Positions 7,758 through 17,647 of a DNA stretch of 64,000 nucleotides are shown piece by piece. The position numbers were made by a program, and so were the translations under genes. Location: positions 1 through 64,000 of the IMG/VR virus record IMGVR_UViG_3300033074_001936. One strand, written 5' to 3'. The notes beneath the pieces are model-generated. The model worked only from the letters and a program-made list of their open reading frames with translations. It did no database searches and was not told the origin of the DNA. The DNA comes from a virus. Taxonomy: Duplodnaviria > Caudoviricetes. Every line of letters begins with the position of its first letter. Within the stretch, counting starts at the first letter, position 1.

Positions 7758-10442
7758 ATGCTCGCCCCCATGAATAAAGCCGCCCCCACATTCATGCAGC
7801 GCTTGGTGGGGCTCGTTACTTCGACTCCGCGCGCCAAGCCGTTCTCGGAGATGGGCGTGTCCGGGACGCCCATATACGGGGGGTACGTACAAACGCGTGA
7901 GAAGTCATCGGGGTGGATGGGCGCGCAGCGCTACATCACTATCTCCGACATGGCGGTCAATGCATCTATTGTCGCTGCGGGGGTGCATTACTTCCTCAAC
8001 TTGATCGCGCGCCCGTCGTGGACGGCTCAGCCCGCCGACGAATCCGCCAAGGCCAAGGAGCTCGCGGAGTTTGTCGACGCAGTCCTGCATGACATGCGGC
8101 GCCCGTGGCCGCGGGTGGTGCGCCGGGCAGGCACGTATCGGTTCTTCGGCTTCGGCGTTCAGGAGTGGACCGCCAAGCGCCGCCCGGACGGCAAGATCGG
8201 ATTGGCGTCGGTCGAGCCGCGCCCGCAGCACACAATCGAGCGATGGGCGCTGGACCCTTCCGGGAAAGTTGAGGGCGTGTTTCAACGCGATCCGTCGACG
8301 GGGCAGGAGCTCGGCATTCCGCGCGGCAAGATCATGTACTTGGTCGAAGATGCGATCTCGGACTCCCCGGAGGGAGTCGGCATCTTCCGACACCTCGCCG
8401 AGCCGTGGGAGCGCCTCAAAGTTTACATGGAGCTCGAGGCGCGCGCATTCGAGCGCGACTTGCGGGGCATCCCGGTCGGCCGCGTGCCATACACTCTCCT
8501 CAATGCGGCAGTCAAGGCCGGCGAGATCGACGCGGCCAAGGCCGCCTCTATGAGCCGCATGCTCGAGGACTTTGTGCAGCTGCAAGTGCGCCAATCGAAC
8601 ACGGCGATCACGCTGGACTCGGTTCCTTATTACTCGCAGGCGGCGGACGGCTCCAAAGTTGCCGGCATGCCTCAGTGGGGGCTCGAGCTCTTGCAGGGCG
8701 CGGCGCAGGGGGTGGAGGCCATCGCCGCCGCAATCACGCGCACGCAGATGGAGATGGCGCGCATCTTGACCTGTGAGCACCTCCTCATGGGGGCGGACGG
8801 CTCGGGCAACAGGGCGCTCTCGGAGGACAAGTCCCGCAACCTGTACTTGGTGGCGAATGCCGTGCTGGCGGACATCGCCGAGGCCGCCACCCACGACCTG
8901 GTCGAGCCGATCTGGCTCCTCAACAGCTTCCCGGATGAGCTCAAGCCGCGGCTCGAGGCGGAGGATGTCGCATTCCAAGATGCCGACACGGTCGCGGCGA
9001 CGCTGGCCAAGATGGCGCAGGCGGGGGCGGTGCTGGCGCCCGACGATCCGGTCATCGAGGATGTGCGCGCTCTCATGGGCGTCTCCCCGCCCGCGCCCAT
9101 CCCGCCCGAGCTCGTGGGCATGAAGGGGCCGGAAGATAATGAAGACGGGGGAGAGGTGAAAGATGAACCGTCAGCTGATGCCGATGATGCTGAGATCGAA
9201 GAAGGTGGGCTGGAGAAGGCATTTGACCCGAACCAACCGCGGCATCCTCCAGGCTCACCCGAGGGGGGTCAGTGGGTTAGTTCTCGCGGGAGTGTAGAAG
9301 TATTTCACGGCACCACTGATAATGTGATCGAAAGTATCTTGGCGGGAGGTATACGTGCTCAGCCTGGGGTGGATAATTTTGCTTTTGTTGCGCGCGCGGG
9401 TGGGGAATCTGCGGTATTTGTGACGAACTCCCAAAAGAACGCCCTCGCGTACGCGCGAGCGGCCCAGAATGGTTTTGCCGAGCGGTATTGGGATGCGCAT
9501 TTTGAAGAGGCCGAGGCAATACAGGAAGCACTGCGTCGGAAGTATGGTTCGGTCAAGTCGCAGGAGTTTGGCGGCCCCGTTCCCGCAGCTGAAGCTTATC
9601 CTTTTTTGAATAAAGTTCCAGGCTTGCCTTCAATCGCCGTTGTTCACGCGCGTATCCCGAAGGCGGAGTGGGCGAAGTTCAAGCACGATAGAGAGAGTTT
9701 GGCTCCATCTAAGTATGGCAGGAGAATCAAACCGGAGTGGATTAAATCTATCAAAGTGCGAAAGCCCGGATCAAAATTGACTAGTATATTTCAGAAAGAG
9801 CTTGATAATGGGGAAATCTATTTTGTGATGTTATTTGTAGAGGAAGGGGGGTTGAGCAAGCGCGCGGCCCAGGCCGGTCGGGAGGCCGTCGCGCAGCTCC
9901 GCGGGCTGGGGAAGGCCGCGGGGCGCAAGACTCTCTACGTCAAGCGCCGCCTCCTCAACCCGGAGGACGTGCGGGCGTGGGCGGCCGCGCAGGGCATCGC
10001 GTCGACCCTGCGCCCGGACGACATGCATGTGACTGTCGCATTCTCGCGCGAGCCGGTCGACTGGTCGAAGATTGAGCTCGAGACGGACGCGGTCGTTGTC
10101 TTGGATGACGGGGTGGAAAAGCGCGCGGTCCATCAGTTCCCGCCCCGGTCCACCCCCAACGGCGCGCTCGTCCTCAAGTTCGAGTCGCCCGAGCTCCGCG
10201 CGCGCTGGCAGTACTTCCGCGACGCGGGCGCGTCGTGGGACTTCCCGGAGTACCAGCCGCACGTGACCATCACCTACTCGGTCCCGCAGGCCGATGTTGG
10301 CGCGATCGAGCCGTACCGCGGGCCGCTGATCTTCGGCCCCGAGGAGGCGTCCGAGGTCAACGACGACTGGGCGGGCGAGCTCGTCGAGGAACCGACCAGT
10401 ATGATCTCGGTTGAAGACCGCTGGGTGCCGCAGGGAGGGTAG
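7758..10442 (+). CDS. Portal protein fused to an ADP-ribosyltransferase-like domain and a C-terminal Acb1-like 2H phosphoesterase
   Basis: Follows terL; portal-like N-terminal ~450 aa (FERDLRGIPV, GNRALSEDKS); FDPNQPRHPPGSPEGGQW linker; VFHGTT/AVFVT..ALAYA; two HxT motifs (MHVTVAFS, PHVTITY); AAGGA before ATG 7758. Confidence 0.85.
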   Translation: MLAPMNKAAPTFMQRLVGLVTSTPRAKPFSEMGVSGTPIYGGYVQTREKSSGWMGAQRYITISDMAVNASIVAAGVHYFLNLIARPSWTAQPADESAKAKELAEFVDAVLHDMRRPWPRVVRRAGTYRFFGFGVQEWTAKRRPDGKIGLASVEPRPQHTIERWALDPSGKVEGVFQRDPSTGQELGIPRGKIMYLVEDAISDSPEGVGIFRHLAEPWERLKVYMELEARAFERDLRGIPVGRVPYTLLNAAVKAGEIDAAKAASMSRMLEDFVQLQVRQSNTAITLDSVPYYSQAADGSKVAGMPQWGLELLQGAAQGVEAIAAAITRTQMEMARILTCEHLLMGADGSGNRALSEDKSRNLYLVANAVLADIAEAATHDLVEPIWLLNSFPDELKPRLEAEDVAFQDADTVAATLAKMAQAGAVLAPDDPVIEDVRALMGVSPPAPIPPELVGMKGPEDNEDGGEVKDEPSADADDAEIEEGGLEKAFDPNQPRHPPGSPEGGQWVSSRGSVEVFHGTTDNVIESILAGGIRAQPGVDNFAFVARAGGESAVFVTNSQKNALAYARAAQNGFAERYWDAHFEEAEAIQEALRRKYGSVKSQEFGGPVPAAEAYPFLNKVPGLPSIAVVHARIPKAEWAKFKHDRESLAPSKYGRRIKPEWIKSIKVRKPGSKLTSIFQKELDNGEIYFVMLFVEEGGLSKRAAQAGREAVAQLRGLGKAAGRKTLYVKRRLLNPEDVRAWAAAQGIASTLRPDDMHVTVAFSREPVDWSKIELETDAVVVLDDGVEKRAVHQFPPRSTPNGALVLKFESPELRARWQYFRDAGASWDFPEYQPHVTITYSVPQADVGAIEPYRGPLIFGPEEASEVNDDWAGELVEEPTSMISVEDRWVPQGG

Positions 10443-12726: not shown

Positions 12727-13229
12727 TCATGGAAGTGGTGTTAATCGGAAGTCAACCCTATGATGCATACGTGAGCATCGCGCAGGCGGACGCATACCTC
12801 GCGGCGGCTCTGCATGCGGGGGCGACCTGGTCTGACGCATCCGATGCATCGAAGGGGCAGGCGCTTGTGACCGCTGCGCGCATCCTCGACCGGCAGCGCT
12901 GGCGCGCAGAATATGATACGCAGGCGGAGCGCGATGGGGTCGCAGCGATCCGGGATGCGAGCATTGAGATGGCGCTCGCCCTCCTCGAGGGCTCCGACTT
13001 GCAGACCGAGCAAGTGACCGGGCAGAAGCTGTCCTCGATTCGCGCTGGCTCGGTGTCGCTGTCCTACTTCCGCGGGGCGGAGGGATCGCCGCGGCGCTTC
13101 CCTACAATCGTCCACGAGCTCCTGCGTGATTACTTAGTCGGCGCCGCCGATGGGCTCGCGGGGGCGGCTTGGGGGGCTGATGGAGTCTCGTCGACTGAGG
13201 ATGACTACGGCCACACCGGCGGCATCTGA
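12723..13229 (+). CDS. Putative head-tail adaptor (DnaT-like phage family)
   Basis: AYVSIAQADAYL, KGQALVTAARILD, IRDASIEMAL, AGSVSLSY, LLRDYL pattern. Confidence 0.7.
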   Translation: MIMEVVLIGSQPYDAYVSIAQADAYLAAALHAGATWSDASDASKGQALVTAARILDRQRWRAEYDTQAERDGVAAIRDASIEMALALLEGSDLQTEQVTGQKLSSIRAGSVSLSYFRGAEGSPRRFPTIVHELLRDYLVGAADGLAGAAWGADGVSSTEDDYGHTGGI

Positions 13230-13245
13230 AAAAGGAGAAGTTATC

Positions 13246-13518
13246 ATGGCATCACTGATGGCATCACTGATCGGCGCGCAGGCTGTGCTCGCGGGGTTCC
13301 CGCTCTCGGCGGTCATCCTCGGCATCATCAACATCGTCATCGTGGCGGCGGTCCTGGTCCTCGTGGGCCTCCTCGTTGTCTGGCTCATGGACGCGCTTGC
13401 CTTCCCGGTGCCGCCGATGGTGCGTCGCGTCTACATCATCGTGGTGGCGCTCATCTGTCTGTACATGGTCGCGGCCCTGCTCCTCGGGTTCCCGACGTTC
13501 AATGTCTTGCGGGGGTGA
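13246..13518 (+). CDS. Small membrane protein (2-3 TM)
   Basis: Strongly hydrophobic; AAGGAG RBS. Confidence 0.7.
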   Translation: MASLMASLIGAQAVLAGFPLSAVILGIINIVIVAAVLVLVGLLVVWLMDALAFPVPPMVRRVYIIVVALICLYMVAALLLGFPTFNVLRG

Positions 13519-13841
13519 GGCGCGTGGGGGATCGCCCGGCAAAGCAGGGGGCGGCGCACGTCTACCTCCTGCACTTCTCGCGCCCCCTCCGGCATGCGCG
13601 GCACTACATCGGGCAGACGACGCGCGCCGATGTCATGGAGCGTATTGCGGAGCATCGGGCCGGTCGGGGCGCGCGCATCACGCGCGAGGCCGTGGCGGCC
13701 GGCATCGAGCTCATTGTCGCGCGCGTTTGGGCGGATGCCCCGCGCCGCTATGAGCGGTTTCTCAAGAAGCAAGGCGGCGCGCGCCGCATCTGCCCAGTAT
13801 GTAAGGCGGAGGCGGAGGCGGCAAAGGGGAGTATGAAGTAG
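13515..13841 (+). CDS. GIY-YIG family nuclease (short)
   Basis: VYLLHF...HYIG, RIAEHRAGRGARIT, ERFLKK, CPVC. Confidence 0.8.
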   Translation: MRRVGDRPAKQGAAHVYLLHFSRPLRHARHYIGQTTRADVMERIAEHRAGRGARITREAVAAGIELIVARVWADAPRRYERFLKKQGGARRICPVCKAEAEAAKGSMK

Positions 13842-13843
13842 CA

Positions 13844-16390
13844 ATGCATGGAACGCAGGAGCACTCTACGATCCGCGGCCTCGCGGATGATGAAGTGATG
13901 CAGCAAGTCTGCGTCGATGTGTGGCGCGAGAAGTACCGCTACAATGATGAGCCGGACTACGCAGCCACATGCGCCCGCGTGGTGGCCGCGCTCTGCGCGA
14001 ACGAGTCGGCGGAGTTTCGCAAGGCGGCGCTTCGCGCCATGATCGCGCGGGAGATCATCCCGGCGGGCCGCATCTTGGCCGGCGCGGGGACCAAGAAGCG
14101 GGTGACCTTGATAAACTGCTTCGTGTCTCCGTACATCCAAGATTCCATGGCGACGCACCTCGACCGGCCGGGCAAGGGGATCATGGATTCGCTCGCGGAC
14201 GCGGCCTACTCGTTGCAGATGGGCGGCGGCATCGGCATGGACTTCTCGACCATCAGGCCTCGCGGCGCCGTGGTCAAGCGCACTGGCTCGACATCATCGG
14301 GAGTGCTGCCGTTCATGGATATGTGGAATGCCATGTCCGAGACTATCATGTCGGCGGGGCATCGCCGCGGCGCCATGATGGGGACCCTGCGCTGCGATCA
14401 TCCCGACATCGAGGAGTTCATCGAGGCCAAGCAGCAGCGCGGGCGGCTCGAGAATTTCAACGTTTCGATCTTGGTTACAGATGCATTCATGCAGGCGGTC
14501 GCGGAGGATAAGAATTGGCACTTGGTTTTCGACGTGCCGCCGAGCAAAGACTGCGGAGGCAATCGACTCATCAGCGATGATCGCGGCGTATTCTATCACG
14601 GTCCCTCCGCGACCCATGGGCATGTATATAAGACGGTCCGCGCGCGCGATCTGTGGGAGAAAATCACGGCGGCGACTTACATGCATGCGGAGCCGGGGGT
14701 GATTTTCATCGACCGGGTGAATGAGCAGAACAATCTCTCCTATTGCGAGACCATTCACGCGTGCAATCCATGCGGGGAGCAGATGCTGCCGGACTCGGGG
14801 GCATGCAATCTCGGCCACGTCAACTTGGCGGCAATGGTCATTAACCCATTTACCGAGGGTGCCTTATTCGATGTGATGCGCTTGCGCACCGCCGCTGAAA
14901 TCATGGTGCGCCTCCTCGATAACGTGCTGGATGTAACCCAGTGGCCGACTCGCGAGCAGAAGAAGGAGGGGCGAGCGAAGCGGCGCATCGGGCTGGGCTT
15001 CACCGGGCTGGCATCTGCCCTTCAGCAACTCGGCATCCCCTACGGCTCCGACCGGGCGGTGAAGTTCACTAACGAAGTCATGCGGAACTTGGCGGTCGCG
15101 GCCTATCGGGAGTCATGCGAGCTCGCGCGACTGCGCGGGCCGTTCCCGGCATTCGATGCTGCCAACTTCTGCGAGGCGCCATTCGTGCGCAGGCTCGATG
15201 AGGTCTACGAAGTGATTGATGGCATAAGAAAGCACGGCATCCGCAACGGGGTCTTGCTTTCCATCGCACCCACCGGAACAACTTCCCTCATGGCGGGCAA
15301 CATCTCATCGGGCATCGAGCCCGTCTTCGCGCATCGCTACCGCCGCCGGGTGCGGGCGGAGAATGGAGCCATGGAGGCGGAGTACTCCGTATTCGATTAT
15401 GGTTATTTGAAGTACTGCGCGCATGTCGGCGCGAACCCGGAGGAGGGGGCGGATCTGCCTGCTGCTTTTGTCACGGCCGATCAGCTCACCGTCGAGCAGC
15501 ATCTGCGCATGGCGGTAGCGGCGCAGGAGTGGGTTGACTCGGCGATCTCGAAGACCATCAACTGTCCCGCCTCCATGAGCCTCGGGGAGTTTCGGGAAGT
15601 CTACCGGAGGGCCTATGACTTCGGCCTCAAGGGTTGTACGACCTACCGCCCCGACCCGCGCTCCGCGCGCGGGGCGGTTCTCATCTCGGATGATCGGAAG
15701 GAGGTGATTTCCAGTGGCAGTGAAGAAGAAGGCGCGCGTGGCGGCCAAGGTCAAGACCGTTCGTCCCGCCAAGGTGGTTCGGCGGCCGGCGGCATCGATG
15801 GTGAAGAAGCCGCGCAGCCGAAGCCGCTGACTGCGGCGCCGCGCACCGATGATAAGATCCCCATGCAGGAGGTCGTCGACGCGCGGCGCTATCGCATCAA
15901 GTGGCCGACCGAAGATTGTTCTTACTATGTGATCATCACGGACTATCTCGATGCGAGCGGCCGGCGTCGCCCGTTCGAGCTGTTCATCTCGACCAAGTCC
16001 GAGCGCCATTCGGAATGGGTCAAGGCGTTCTCCCTTCTGGTGACGGCGATCTTTCGTCGAGAAGGCGATCCGGCTTTTGTCGTCGACGAGCTGCGAAGCG
16101 TTTTCTCCGCCGGGGGTGGAGCCTGGGTGCGGGTGCCTTGGGAGGAAAAATCCAAGCTTGCGCCATCGCTCGTGGCGGCCATTGGCCTCAAGATCGAGGA
16201 ACATTTGCGCTGGCTCGAGCTCATCCCGCGGGATGAAATCCTCCCCAAGCTCGTTCTCAAGATGCCGGAGGAGGGGACCATGCCGGCCGCCGAGCTCCTC
16301 GATGTATGCGATACTTGCGGCGCCCGCGCCGTGATTTATTCGGAAGGTTGTGCAACTTGCCACGCTTGCGGGCGGTCGGACTGCGGTTGA
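13844..16390 (+). CDS. nrdJ: Adenosylcobalamin-dependent (class II) ribonucleotide reductase
   Basis: PAGRIL, NCFV, GGGIG.DFS.IRP, RRGAMM, CNPCGEQ, ACNLG, SIAPTGT, DSAISKTIN, KGCTTYR; C-terminal CxxC..EGC..C..CG. Confidence 0.95.
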   Translation: MHGTQEHSTIRGLADDEVMQQVCVDVWREKYRYNDEPDYAATCARVVAALCANESAEFRKAALRAMIAREIIPAGRILAGAGTKKRVTLINCFVSPYIQDSMATHLDRPGKGIMDSLADAAYSLQMGGGIGMDFSTIRPRGAVVKRTGSTSSGVLPFMDMWNAMSETIMSAGHRRGAMMGTLRCDHPDIEEFIEAKQQRGRLENFNVSILVTDAFMQAVAEDKNWHLVFDVPPSKDCGGNRLISDDRGVFYHGPSATHGHVYKTVRARDLWEKITAATYMHAEPGVIFIDRVNEQNNLSYCETIHACNPCGEQMLPDSGACNLGHVNLAAMVINPFTEGALFDVMRLRTAAEIMVRLLDNVLDVTQWPTREQKKEGRAKRRIGLGFTGLASALQQLGIPYGSDRAVKFTNEVMRNLAVAAYRESCELARLRGPFPAFDAANFCEAPFVRRLDEVYEVIDGIRKHGIRNGVLLSIAPTGTTSLMAGNISSGIEPVFAHRYRRRVRAENGAMEAEYSVFDYGYLKYCAHVGANPEEGADLPAAFVTADQLTVEQHLRMAVAAQEWVDSAISKTINCPASMSLGEFREVYRRAYDFGLKGCTTYRPDPRSARGAVLISDDRKEVISSGSEEEGARGGQGQDRSSRQGGSAAGGIDGEEAAQPKPLTAAPRTDDKIPMQEVVDARRYRIKWPTEDCSYYVIITDYLDASGRRRPFELFISTKSERHSEWVKAFSLLVTAIFRREGDPAFVVDELRSVFSAGGGAWVRVPWEEKSKLAPSLVAAIGLKIEEHLRWLELIPRDEILPKLVLKMPEEGTMPAAELLDVCDTCGARAVIYSEGCATCHACGRSDCG
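15714..15830 (+). CDS. Overprinted 38-aa Lys/Arg-rich peptide in the +1 frame of the nrdJ linker
   Basis: AAGGAGGTGAT at 15698-15708, GTG 15714, TGA 15828-15830; MAVKKKARVAAKVKTVRPAKVVRRPAASMVKKPRSRSR. Confidence 0.55.
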   Translation: MAVKKKARVAAKVKTVRPAKVVRRPAASMVKKPRSRSR

Positions 16391-16400
16391 GGAATGGGAG

Positions 16401-16865
16401 ATGATCTTATCTGCGCAGTCGATTCGGGCTTTCCATGGACTCGTGATTCAACCGTTCTACGAGCGCACGGTCGTCGCGGGAATGACCTTCGGTCTGTCTT
16501 GCGCCGGCTATGACATCCGCATCAAAGACGAAGCTCGCCTCATGCCCGGCGATTTTGTCCTTGCCACTACTGTCGAGTACATCAAACTTCCATCGAATCT
16601 TATGTGCCAGCTTGCGGACAAATCATCATGGGCGCGGCGCGGGATCGCGGTGCAAAACACGATCTTCGAGCCGGGCTGGTTCGGCTACCCGACCCTTGAG
16701 ATCTCGAATCACGGGCGTGAATATGTGCGCATCCCCGCGGCGGCGCCCATCGGCCAGCTCATCTTTCACATGCTCGATGAGCCGACAAACCAGCCATATC
16801 GGGGCAAGTATCAGGACCAGCCGCAGCGGCCCATCGCCGCGCTCGAGGAGGAGGAGGGCGCATGA
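16401..16865 (+). CDS. dcd: dCTP deaminase / trimeric dUTPase family
   Basis: GYDIR, DKSSWARRG, NTIFEPGWFGYPTLEI, PIGQLIF, PYRGKYQDQ. Confidence 0.88.
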   Translation: MILSAQSIRAFHGLVIQPFYERTVVAGMTFGLSCAGYDIRIKDEARLMPGDFVLATTVEYIKLPSNLMCQLADKSSWARRGIAVQNTIFEPGWFGYPTLEISNHGREYVRIPAAAPIGQLIFHMLDEPTNQPYRGKYQDQPQRPIAALEEEEGA

Positions 16866-17647
16866 GCGCAATCAAAGTATTTGTCGGGACATCCCCGGCT
16901 GGCGAGGACGCCGAGGCGTGCGCGGTCCTCGAGCATACGCTGCGCAAGCATGCATCGCGCCCGGTCGACATCACTTGGCTCAAGCAGTCATCGGACCCGG
17001 GGGCGCCGGGGCACGGCTGGCGCTCGGAGCGCTGGTCGACTCCCTGGGCGGGCCTGCGCTGGGCCGCGCCCGAGCTTGCGGGCTGGTCCGGGCGCGCGAT
17101 CTACTTGGACTGCGCGCAGATCATCTTGGGCGACGTTGCGGCGCTCGCGGCGGCCCCCATGCCCGAGGGCGTGGTCGTCCTCCTGAGCAGGGATGGCCGC
17201 TTGCTGCACCTCGCCTGCATGGTCTGGGACTGCGAGCGGGCGCGTGCCGTCTTGCCGCCACTCGAAGCCCTGCGCGCCGATGTGGGCGGGCACTTGGCAG
17301 TCGCCTCGATGCTCGCCGACACCCCATCCTTGGTGGGCGCGCTGCCGCGGGGGTGGGCCGTGGGCGATCAGGACTTTGCGCGCATGCCCGAGGGTGGGGC
17401 GCGCTCGGTTCACTGCGCAAACCTGTTCATGCAGCCGCATGCCCGCATGGCCATCCCGCGCCTGCGCCGCGAGGGGCGTCGGCACTGGTTCGACGAGGTG
17501 CGCATGCGGCACTTCTGCCCCGCGCTCGTGGAGCTGTTTGATCGCGAGTATGCCGAAGCGGAGGCCTCCCCGGGTTTCTCCCTCGAGAAATACATCGGGG
17601 GCGAGGATGCGGGAGGGGGACGTGCAAAGCATCAAGAGGCTTCATGA
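16862..17647 (+). CDS. GT8-like (GT-A) phage glycosyltransferase
   Basis: IKVFVG, VLEHTLRKHASRPVDITWL, WSTPW..LRW..PEL, GRAIYLDC; the DxD position reads DCA. Confidence 0.7.
   Translation: MSAIKVFVGTSPAGEDAEACAVLEHTLRKHASRPVDITWLKQSSDPGAPGHGWRSERWSTPWAGLRWAAPELAGWSGRAIYLDCAQIILGDVAALAAAPMPEGVVVLLSRDGRLLHLACMVWDCERARAVLPPLEALRADVGGHLAVASMLADTPSLVGALPRGWAVGDQDFARMPEGGARSVHCANLFMQPHARMAIPRLRREGRRHWFDEVRMRHFCPALVELFDREYAEAEASPGFSLEKYIGGEDAGGGRAKHQEAS

Follow-up and report, generated by a model that had tools for sequence, protein, structure and literature searches.

The nrdJ gene and its interdomain linker

The stretch of DNA analysed here (the window) comprises the first 64 kb of a 94.9-kb IMG/VR virus record (IMGVR_UViG_3300033074_001936), has a GC content of 64%, and carries a phage ribonucleotide reductase gene, nrdJ, within which a short open reading frame (ORF) in the +1 frame is a candidate nested gene. 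A preliminary description of this DNA had singled out the ORF and proposed that it encodes a histone- or protamine-like peptide. The features concerned, with disorder judged from the predicted local distance difference test (pLDDT) of a structural model, are as follows:

13844–16390, + strand: nrdJ, a phage class II (B12-dependent) ribonucleotide reductase gene of 848 codons, identified by Pfam, AlphaFold2 and homologues
15698–15708, + strand: Shine-Dalgarno (SD) sequence AAGGAGGTGAT, followed by five bases and then the GTG; read as K-E-V-I in the nrdJ frame
15705–15707, + strand: TGA in the +1 frame, three codons upstream of the GTG; also present in the related loci L008, L010, L012 and L015
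15710–15850, + strand: disordered interdomain linker of NrdJ, residues 623–669, pLDDT < 50
15714–15716, + strand: GTG start of the nested ORF, spanning the nrdJ codons AGT-GGC (Ser-Gly)
15714–15830, + strand: nested +1 ORF inside nrdJ, 38 codons plus TGA (15828–15830)
15878–16390, + strand: C-terminal folded part of NrdJ, residues 679–848, whose translation requires an nrdJ frame free of stops over the nested ORF

NrdJ consists of a catalytic barrel, a disordered linker and then a C-terminal TSCPD/IscU-like domain ending in a Cys-rich zinc finger. Pfam places the ribonucleotide reductase barrel (PF02867, E = 3e-125) at residues 92–601 and the TSCPD domain (PF12637) at residues 688–788, and six cysteines (C822, C825, C836, C839, C842 and C847) are invariant. 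An AlphaFold2 model based on 86 homologues has a mean pLDDT of 87 and is weak at the N-terminus, in one short loop and over residues 623–669. The Pfam domains, the confident model and the Cys-rich end together identify the protein as a class II NrdJ with a long C-terminus. A homologue search returned thousands of matches, and across the resulting alignment the linker varies from about 10 to > 100 residues and is hypervariable, with no conservation.

A nested ORF with its own start signals

On recheck, the SD, the GTG, the ORF coordinates, the length of 38 residues, the 15 Lys or Arg residues and the lack of acidic residues reported in the preliminary description were all exact. The predicted product contains eight Lys and seven Arg, no Asp or Glu, and is rich in Ala, Val and Pro. 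The ORF corresponds to nrdJ codons 624–663, which fall in the region of pLDDT < 50, and thus lies wholly within the disordered linker; the Pfam domains and the low confidence of this region likewise bear out the earlier placement of the linker between the catalytic and C-terminal domains.

At the sequence level, the ORF sits inside a longer same-strand gene in another frame and has initiation signals of its own at a proper spacing. The GGAGG core of the SD ends 9 nucleotides (nt) upstream of GTG 15714, and real genes of this phage have GGAGG at a spacing of 4–11 nt, so the spacing of the nested ORF matches theirs. The +1 TGA at 15705–15707 closes the frame just upstream, which excludes entry by frameshifting from further upstream. 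The start codon itself demands the rare Ser codon AGT in the nrdJ frame, a codon that accounts for 5% of Ser codons elsewhere in the genes compared here.

The layout is not an assembly frameshift, because contigs from two public runs of another study (X2 record 6 and X5 record 23), which cover 15392–15883 and 15699–16390, show the same frames with one to two differences and no gaps. Logan contigs of three runs do break near the linker (X2 at 15699–15706, X4 at 15691, and X3 with a gap at 15672–15853); such breaks would fit strain-level linker variation in wastewater or sludge populations, which contigs cannot prove. None of the listed runs that hold the stretch is recorded as RNA. A scan of 13000–17500 against Rfam gave no matches, and folding z-scores for the nine start regions described below were mixed (+1.7 to −1.6), supporting neither a conserved structure nor consistent openness.

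Carriers and non-carriers among related phages

The nearest NrdJ proteins are 59–71% identical to that of the window and belong to contigs of uncultured phages on which a Mu-type portal, Acb1 and DnaT-like genes lie nearby. DNA was obtained for 12 relatives, and the nested ORF has nine carriers (the window together with L006/L007, L008, L009, L010, L011, L012, L015 and L016). All nine genes whose linker is of this E/G/A/R type have an SD, a start codon, an Ala/Lys/Pro-rich +1 ORF and a stop at the same place, and thereby passed the homologue comparison that the preliminary description itself had named as a check. Their +1 ORFs span 28–38 codons and encode 11–15 Lys plus Arg residues with at most one acidic residue. 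In the eight orthologues, AGGAGG or GAGAGGAG is placed 6–9 nt ahead of the start codon.

The start codon is reached in three configurations: AGT-GGC gives GTG in six genes, TGT-GGC gives GTG in two, and GAT-GCC gives ATG in one. The Ser-to-Cys change that this entails in the nrdJ frame is synonymous in the +1 frame (CCA to CCT). The +1 TGA three codons ahead of the start is found in five of the nine genes. Between the SD and the GTG, the window and L010 match at ~20 of 21 bases, which points to common origin rather than convergence.

Three relatives without the nested ORF have other linker types, and in one of them, L074, the SD is kept and is followed by ATG-AGG-TAG, the body of the ORF being gone. 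The linkers of 17 other phage nrdJ genes are short and lack such an ORF. Wider searches for carriers yielded one partial locus in a metagenome scan, relatives of at most 55% identity with short linkers in IMG/VR, and only alphaproteobacterial nrdJ at 42–46% in GTDB genomes; cultured phages have NrdJ proteins of at most 42% identity.

A DNA-pattern scan of IMG/VR for the start motif matched unrelated gene starts, and in most of the 47 IMG/VR matches SD-N-GTG-GCN precedes a genuine gene of 120–140 codons, a point in favour of the nested gene. The longer motif SD-N-GTG-GCN-AAG also precedes Lys-rich ORFs of 10–18 codons in unrelated viral contigs (L164/L192, L177, L183, L185 and L202), and the −1 frame of several of these reads Glu-rich; they may be further small basic peptides, or chance.

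Several side observations concern the nrdJ genes of these relatives. Many close NrdJ homologues have 1100–1450 residues and carry intein and HNH endonuclease domains (P0005, P0012, P0017, P0021, P0023, P0024, P0029 and P0033; e.g. L015:2483–5824 and L016:3001–6339), neither of which is present in the window nrdJ; the nested ORF is retained in two intein-bearing genes. The nrdJ-frame motif T-L-R-V-G-x-x-S-R-T-E-R recurs, right before the E-E-V/SD segment, in several linkers that are otherwise unalignable (P0004, P0026, P0022, P0023 and P0027; e.g. L010 and L012 upstream of the SD, and L074), perhaps as a linear motif, perhaps as a recombination module. Finally, the gene directly after nrdJ in L074 (L074:4093–4404) encodes a GapR_DNA-bd domain (PF10073), that of an alphaproteobacterial nucleoid protein, which fits an alphaproteobacterial host; one may also ask if these phages can exchange one DNA-binding function near nrdJ for another.

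Codon usage and constraint on both frames

Pooling the nine genes, we compared nrdJ-frame codons inside the overlap with those in the rest of each gene. The share of each codon among those for its amino acid was as follows:

GAA (Glu): 94% (77/82) in the overlap, 10% (55/570) in the rest of the gene
AAA (Lys): 90% in the overlap, 8% in the rest of the gene
CAA (Gln): 78% in the overlap, 2% in the rest of the gene
GGC (Gly): 83% in the overlap, 40% in the rest of the gene
GCC (Ala): 70% in the overlap, 34% in the rest of the gene
CGC (Arg): 72% in the overlap, 46% in the rest of the gene

For Glu the counts are GAA 77 and GAG 5 in the overlap, against GAA 55 and GAG 515 outside it (Fisher P = 3e-57); in three relatives that lack the ORF, the linkers contain GAA 5 and GAG 16. 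The codon reversal begins at the start codon, and the GAG GAG of the SD sits right upstream. Since rare A-ending and common C-ending codons both rise, the third positions of the nrdJ frame are A or C, and these are the second letters of +1 Lys, Ala and Pro codons; +1 Lys is written AAG 91 times and AAA twice. Codon choice of the nrdJ frame in the overlap is dictated by the amino acids of the +1 frame. A generic cluster of rare codons was rejected as an account, given that the common codons GGC, GCC and CGC are also enriched, and so was avoidance of SD-like sequence as the cause of GAA, given that Glu-Glu dipeptides outside the overlap use GAG 51 times and GAA four times. The window's own copy follows the pattern (GAA 5/5, CAA 3/4, plus GGT and AGT codons), and no tandem repeat was found in it.

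The start codon was kept in a fraction of 0.05–0.39 of nrdJ-frame-synonymous resamplings per gene, or ~1e-5 across five lineages; GTG 15714 survives in 5–6% of trials. Conversely, no nrdJ-frame stop occurs across the nine overlaps, against 7.1 expected with normally used +1 codons (P = 0.0008). Conservation of the ORF, its start and its composition therefore goes beyond what the host frame accounts for, and there is constraint at synonymous sites, of a compositional kind. Constraint acts on both frames, the hallmark of dual coding.

The preliminary description had also noted a contrast in codon usage between the two frames, and this was borne out: the excess of GC at third codon positions (GC3) of the +1 frame over that of the nrdJ frame is the largest in the gene at codon 624 (0.84 versus 0.55). 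Codons for Glu, Gly, Ala and Arg begin with G or C, which by itself accounts for part of the high +1 GC3, and the informative part of the contrast is the drop in nrdJ-frame GC3. By codon adaptation, the nested ORF lies within the top 2% of open alternative-frame windows, a tail whose other members are mostly real genes overlapped by over-extended ORFs.

Composition and predicted nature of the peptide

PAKK units occur in seven of the nine orthologues. The copy in the window consists to 87% of Ala, Lys, Pro, Arg and Val and lacks an exact PAKK, having PAKV and RPAA. No other Ala/Lys/Pro-rich stretch of 22 residues was found in the six frames of the window, in ~70 phage loci or in 466 kb around 80 alphaproteobacterial nrdJ genes. 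By hmmscan, none of the nine peptides matched Pfam even at E values up to 10, and none is among ~15 billion predicted proteins. An Atlas feature search returned only small hypothetical proteins and one cluster, 20% of whose members are PF07382 (score 0.89), which is a lead and not evidence.

Part of the earlier label did not stand. A protamine-like class was rejected, as Lys and not Arg dominates (pooled +1 AAG 91, against ~23 Arg codons) and no profile matches; the histone-like part would hold only insofar as the homologues resemble PAKKA/H1 tails in composition. On that composition, the peptide is a putative polycationic nucleic-acid binder of the PAKKA/H1-tail type, free-standing at 28–38 residues and not attached to a folded DNA-binding domain as PAKKA-type tails are. 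We file the ORF as a predicted overprinted phage gene that belongs to no protein family.

A second protein of the phage is of related interest. Outside the window, at 84986–85720 (+ strand) of the full record (= L155:1487–2221), a 244-residue protein encoded between QueC-like and FolE-like genes combines an N-terminal domain, a long run of Asp/Glu, a segment rich in Ala, Lys and Pro that is read in frame (AAKK/PKKA units) and a C-terminal domain; its only Pfam matches are sub-threshold and of low complexity. An H1-like basic region is thus encoded in an ordinary frame of this phage as well, adjoining 7-deazaguanine genes. Origin of the nested ORF by duplication from this protein was rejected, there being no nucleotide or peptide similarity between the two.

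Favoured interpretation

We consider 15714–15830 to be probably a real nested (overprinted) gene that starts at GTG 15714 and is predicted to encode an unstructured polycation, and would give this a probability of roughly 0.65. In the preliminary description the gene was a proposal from one sequence; its presence in all nine genes, and a codon usage of the kind that Lys, Ala and Pro in the +1 frame demand, now argue for it. The nrdJ frame would read the stretch as a disordered, mildly acidic Gly/Glu/Ala/Arg-rich tether joining the barrel to the C-terminal domain, across which it would need only to stay open and flexible. Free 30S subunits would bind the SD at 15698–15708 and initiate at GTG 15714 in the +1 frame, giving the 38-residue polycationic peptide, which would bind nucleic acid in the manner of lysine-rich PAKKA/H1-type tails. 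It might condense or bridge DNA, or neutralise charge, in the replication phase, when nrdJ would be expressed.

As to origin, a basic peptide can readily arise from an acidic linker, because Glu codons before a G read as Lys or Arg in the +1 frame. Overprinting would have started from such GAR codons followed by a G-starting codon, and selection for Lys would then have fixed GAA. The other origin offered in the preliminary description, a small gene captured in frame by nrdJ, was not borne out, as no free-standing copy of the ORF was found in the phage genome or the scanned loci; gene capture is no more likely than overprinting of an acidic linker. More speculatively, and here we are somewhat doubtful, an uncultured phage clade with probably alphaproteobacterial hosts may make a free, H1-tail-like polycation of 28–38 residues, born by overprinting of the nrdJ linker, that condenses or shields phage or host DNA during replication.

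Alternative explanations

A number of observations weigh against a nested gene. Some concern the signals themselves. The SD is partly confounded by the E-E-V motif of the nrdJ frame, and an (R/K)-E-E-V motif, a partial source of the SD, also occurs in linkers without the ORF. The 11-mer AAGGAGGTGAT has one exact copy in the window, but three matches with one mismatch allowed (0.61 expected); both one-mismatch copies are intragenic, and K-E-V codons give rise to at least one of them (55136), so that the SD alone is weak evidence. About a dozen cases of GGAGG, a start and an ORF of 20–60 codons lie inside other genes of the window. Given such combinations and the KEV-encoded look-alikes, an SD plus an ORF in a single genome is only mildly to moderately unusual. 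Among further intragenic cases with GGAGG, a start and 30–36 codons are 9962–10075, 15606–15707 and 16267–16390, two of them inside nrdJ. The openness of the +1 frame is uninformative, because nrdJ-frame composition alone leaves it open in a fraction of 0.82–1.0 of resamplings.

Other unfavourable points concern evolution and the product. When the nine ORFs are compared, substitutions show no preference for any of the three codon phases (0.39, 0.35 and 0.36), in low-complexity alignments that are not positionally homologous, so selection, if any, would act on overall composition rather than on individual positions. L009 and L012 contain weak tandem units (9, 18 and 21 nt), and slippage could thus have spread part of the codon signature. 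The nested ORF is missing in the close relatives L013, L014 and L074 and, judging by protein, P0021, and is therefore dispensable or mobile. In a quick tree the eight other carriers form one clade (support 99), while the NrdJ of the window falls in another (98); as this protein is about equally distant from all relatives, the distribution of carriers could reflect either ancestry with losses or exchange of linkers. No family matching the peptide turned up in Pfam, PHROGs or PDB sequences, or when 1.8 billion representatives were searched with a profile, and the window's copy, being Val- and Arg-rich, is the least canonical of the nine.

Much of this would be expected if there were no gene at all and the ORF were a by-product of a low-complexity linker: a purine-rich unit of the GAAGAAGCC type would spread by slippage, bringing with it both the GAA bias and a Lys-rich +1 frame, the SD would come from E-E-V, and the start would be inherited without selection. 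The tandem units, the even substitutions, the E-E-V motif of ORF-less linkers, the composition-driven openness and the losses in related lineages are all in its favour, and it is the alternative that we take most seriously, although we think it unlikely. The copy in the window has no tandem repeat and yet shows the full codon pattern. Furthermore, the NrdJ proteins have diverged to the identities given above and the linkers differ at 35–40% of aligned bases, so that an unselected synonymous signature should have decayed. Nor does a by-product explain why the start is retained in three codon contexts that require rare nrdJ-frame codons, or why the codon reversal starts at the start codon with the GAG GAG of the SD just upstream.

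A programmed +1 frameshift, stimulated by the internal SD, would instead yield a truncated NrdJ core with a basic tail and without the C-terminal domain. In prfB an SD-like element lies upstream of a +1 shift site, and the downstream +1 frame here is open, with good codons. However, in the five genes with a TGA three codons before the start, only 6 nt are left in which to shift; these are unconserved and contain neither a slippery site, nor a stop-codon shift site, nor an nrdJ-frame stop. The conserved GTG or ATG would moreover be unnecessary, yet it is maintained at the cost of rare codons, and we regard this mechanism as very improbable. Two related mechanisms were rejected: a return to the nrdJ frame by a −1 shift where the ORF ends (there is no slippery heptamer) and reinitiation at the conserved Met674 (there is no upstream SD, and Met674 is also conserved in genes without the ORF).

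It seems just as improbable that the stretch serves as a translational pause, in which SD-like sequence and rare codons let the catalytic domain fold first. The rare codons GAA, AAA, CAA and AGT and the match to the anti-SD do lie exactly at the domain boundary. But the A-ending codons that are enriched are only those that make +1 AAG, while Gly, Ala and Arg move to their commonest, C-ending codons; in relatives that lack the ORF, the effect on the linker is only mild; and the start codon, the stop and the Ala/Lys/Pro reading would be left unexplained. Lastly, an assembly or sequencing artefact, with two compensating indels putting an in-frame Ala/Lys/Pro linker out of frame, can practically be set aside, as nine independent assemblies from different samples share the frame layout, with a +1 stop in each, and the contigs of the other study reproduce it.

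Comparison with known systems

Phage genes nested out of frame include Rz1 inside Rz in lambda and E inside D in phiX174, whose products act in lysis and carry a lipobox or a transmembrane segment. The arrangement in nrdJ is like these in that a short +1 ORF with its own SD and start lies inside a longer same-strand gene, in a tolerant segment of the host gene and in a compact phage genome. It is unlike them in that the nested product is predicted to be a soluble, unstructured polycation, the host gene encodes a metabolic enzyme, the overlap is limited to a disordered linker, and the nested gene is predicted from sequence.

In Hlp, HU and Ku, lysine-rich PAKKA repeats are reported to bind DNA and to bridge it (PMC3553676). 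Like the PAKKA/H1 tails of mycobacterial Hlp, M. smegmatis Ku, Deinococcus HU and Streptomyces HupS, the nested ORFs encode sequence that is rich in Ala, Lys and Pro, with PAKK units in seven of the nine, has almost no acidic residues and evolves fast through changes in repeats; electrostatic binding or bridging of DNA would be expected. Those tails are joined to a folded DNA-binding domain, whereas the nested peptide stands alone at its 28–38 residues, without profile homology. Chlamydial Hc2 (PF07382), which has 165–237 residues, is likewise built of Lys/Ala-rich pentamer repeats of variable number (PMC2848022); both it and the nested peptide are rich in Lys and Ala, but a match to the PF07382 profile is absent in all nine peptides.

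The junction that hosts the ORF also has a parallel. In the split class II ribonucleotide reductase NrdJa/NrdJb, the boundary falls between the catalytic barrel and the IscU-like domain with its zinc finger (PMC9669993), which is the position of the linker here, and this junction therefore tolerates large changes. In contrast to the split enzyme, nrdJ is one ORF in all nine genes, apparently held open by selection, and the small ORF lies out of frame and not between genes.

Implications

Nested ORFs go unreported by gene callers, and the pattern described here offers a recipe for finding more of them in GC-rich genomes: a local reversal of two-fold codon choice (towards GAA, AAA and CAA) combined with enrichment of common C-ending codons. 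The comparative signal in the sequences is strong, while translation and function remain predicted. If real, the ORF would give a group of wastewater and sludge phages one more small conserved gene, and would be a case in which overprinting can readily be studied, given nine orthologues, three start configurations, natural loss variants and a simple logic of origin, in which an acidic frame shifted by one base is a basic frame. Were the polycation reading also true, these phages would have a peptide of protamine-like function and a clean case of de novo gene birth, documented by orthologues and loss variants alike. For ribonucleotide reductase biology, a real ORF would mean that the linker owes its odd sequence to a second layer of coding rather than to the needs of the enzyme, and that the disordered linkers of essential enzymes can host new genes.

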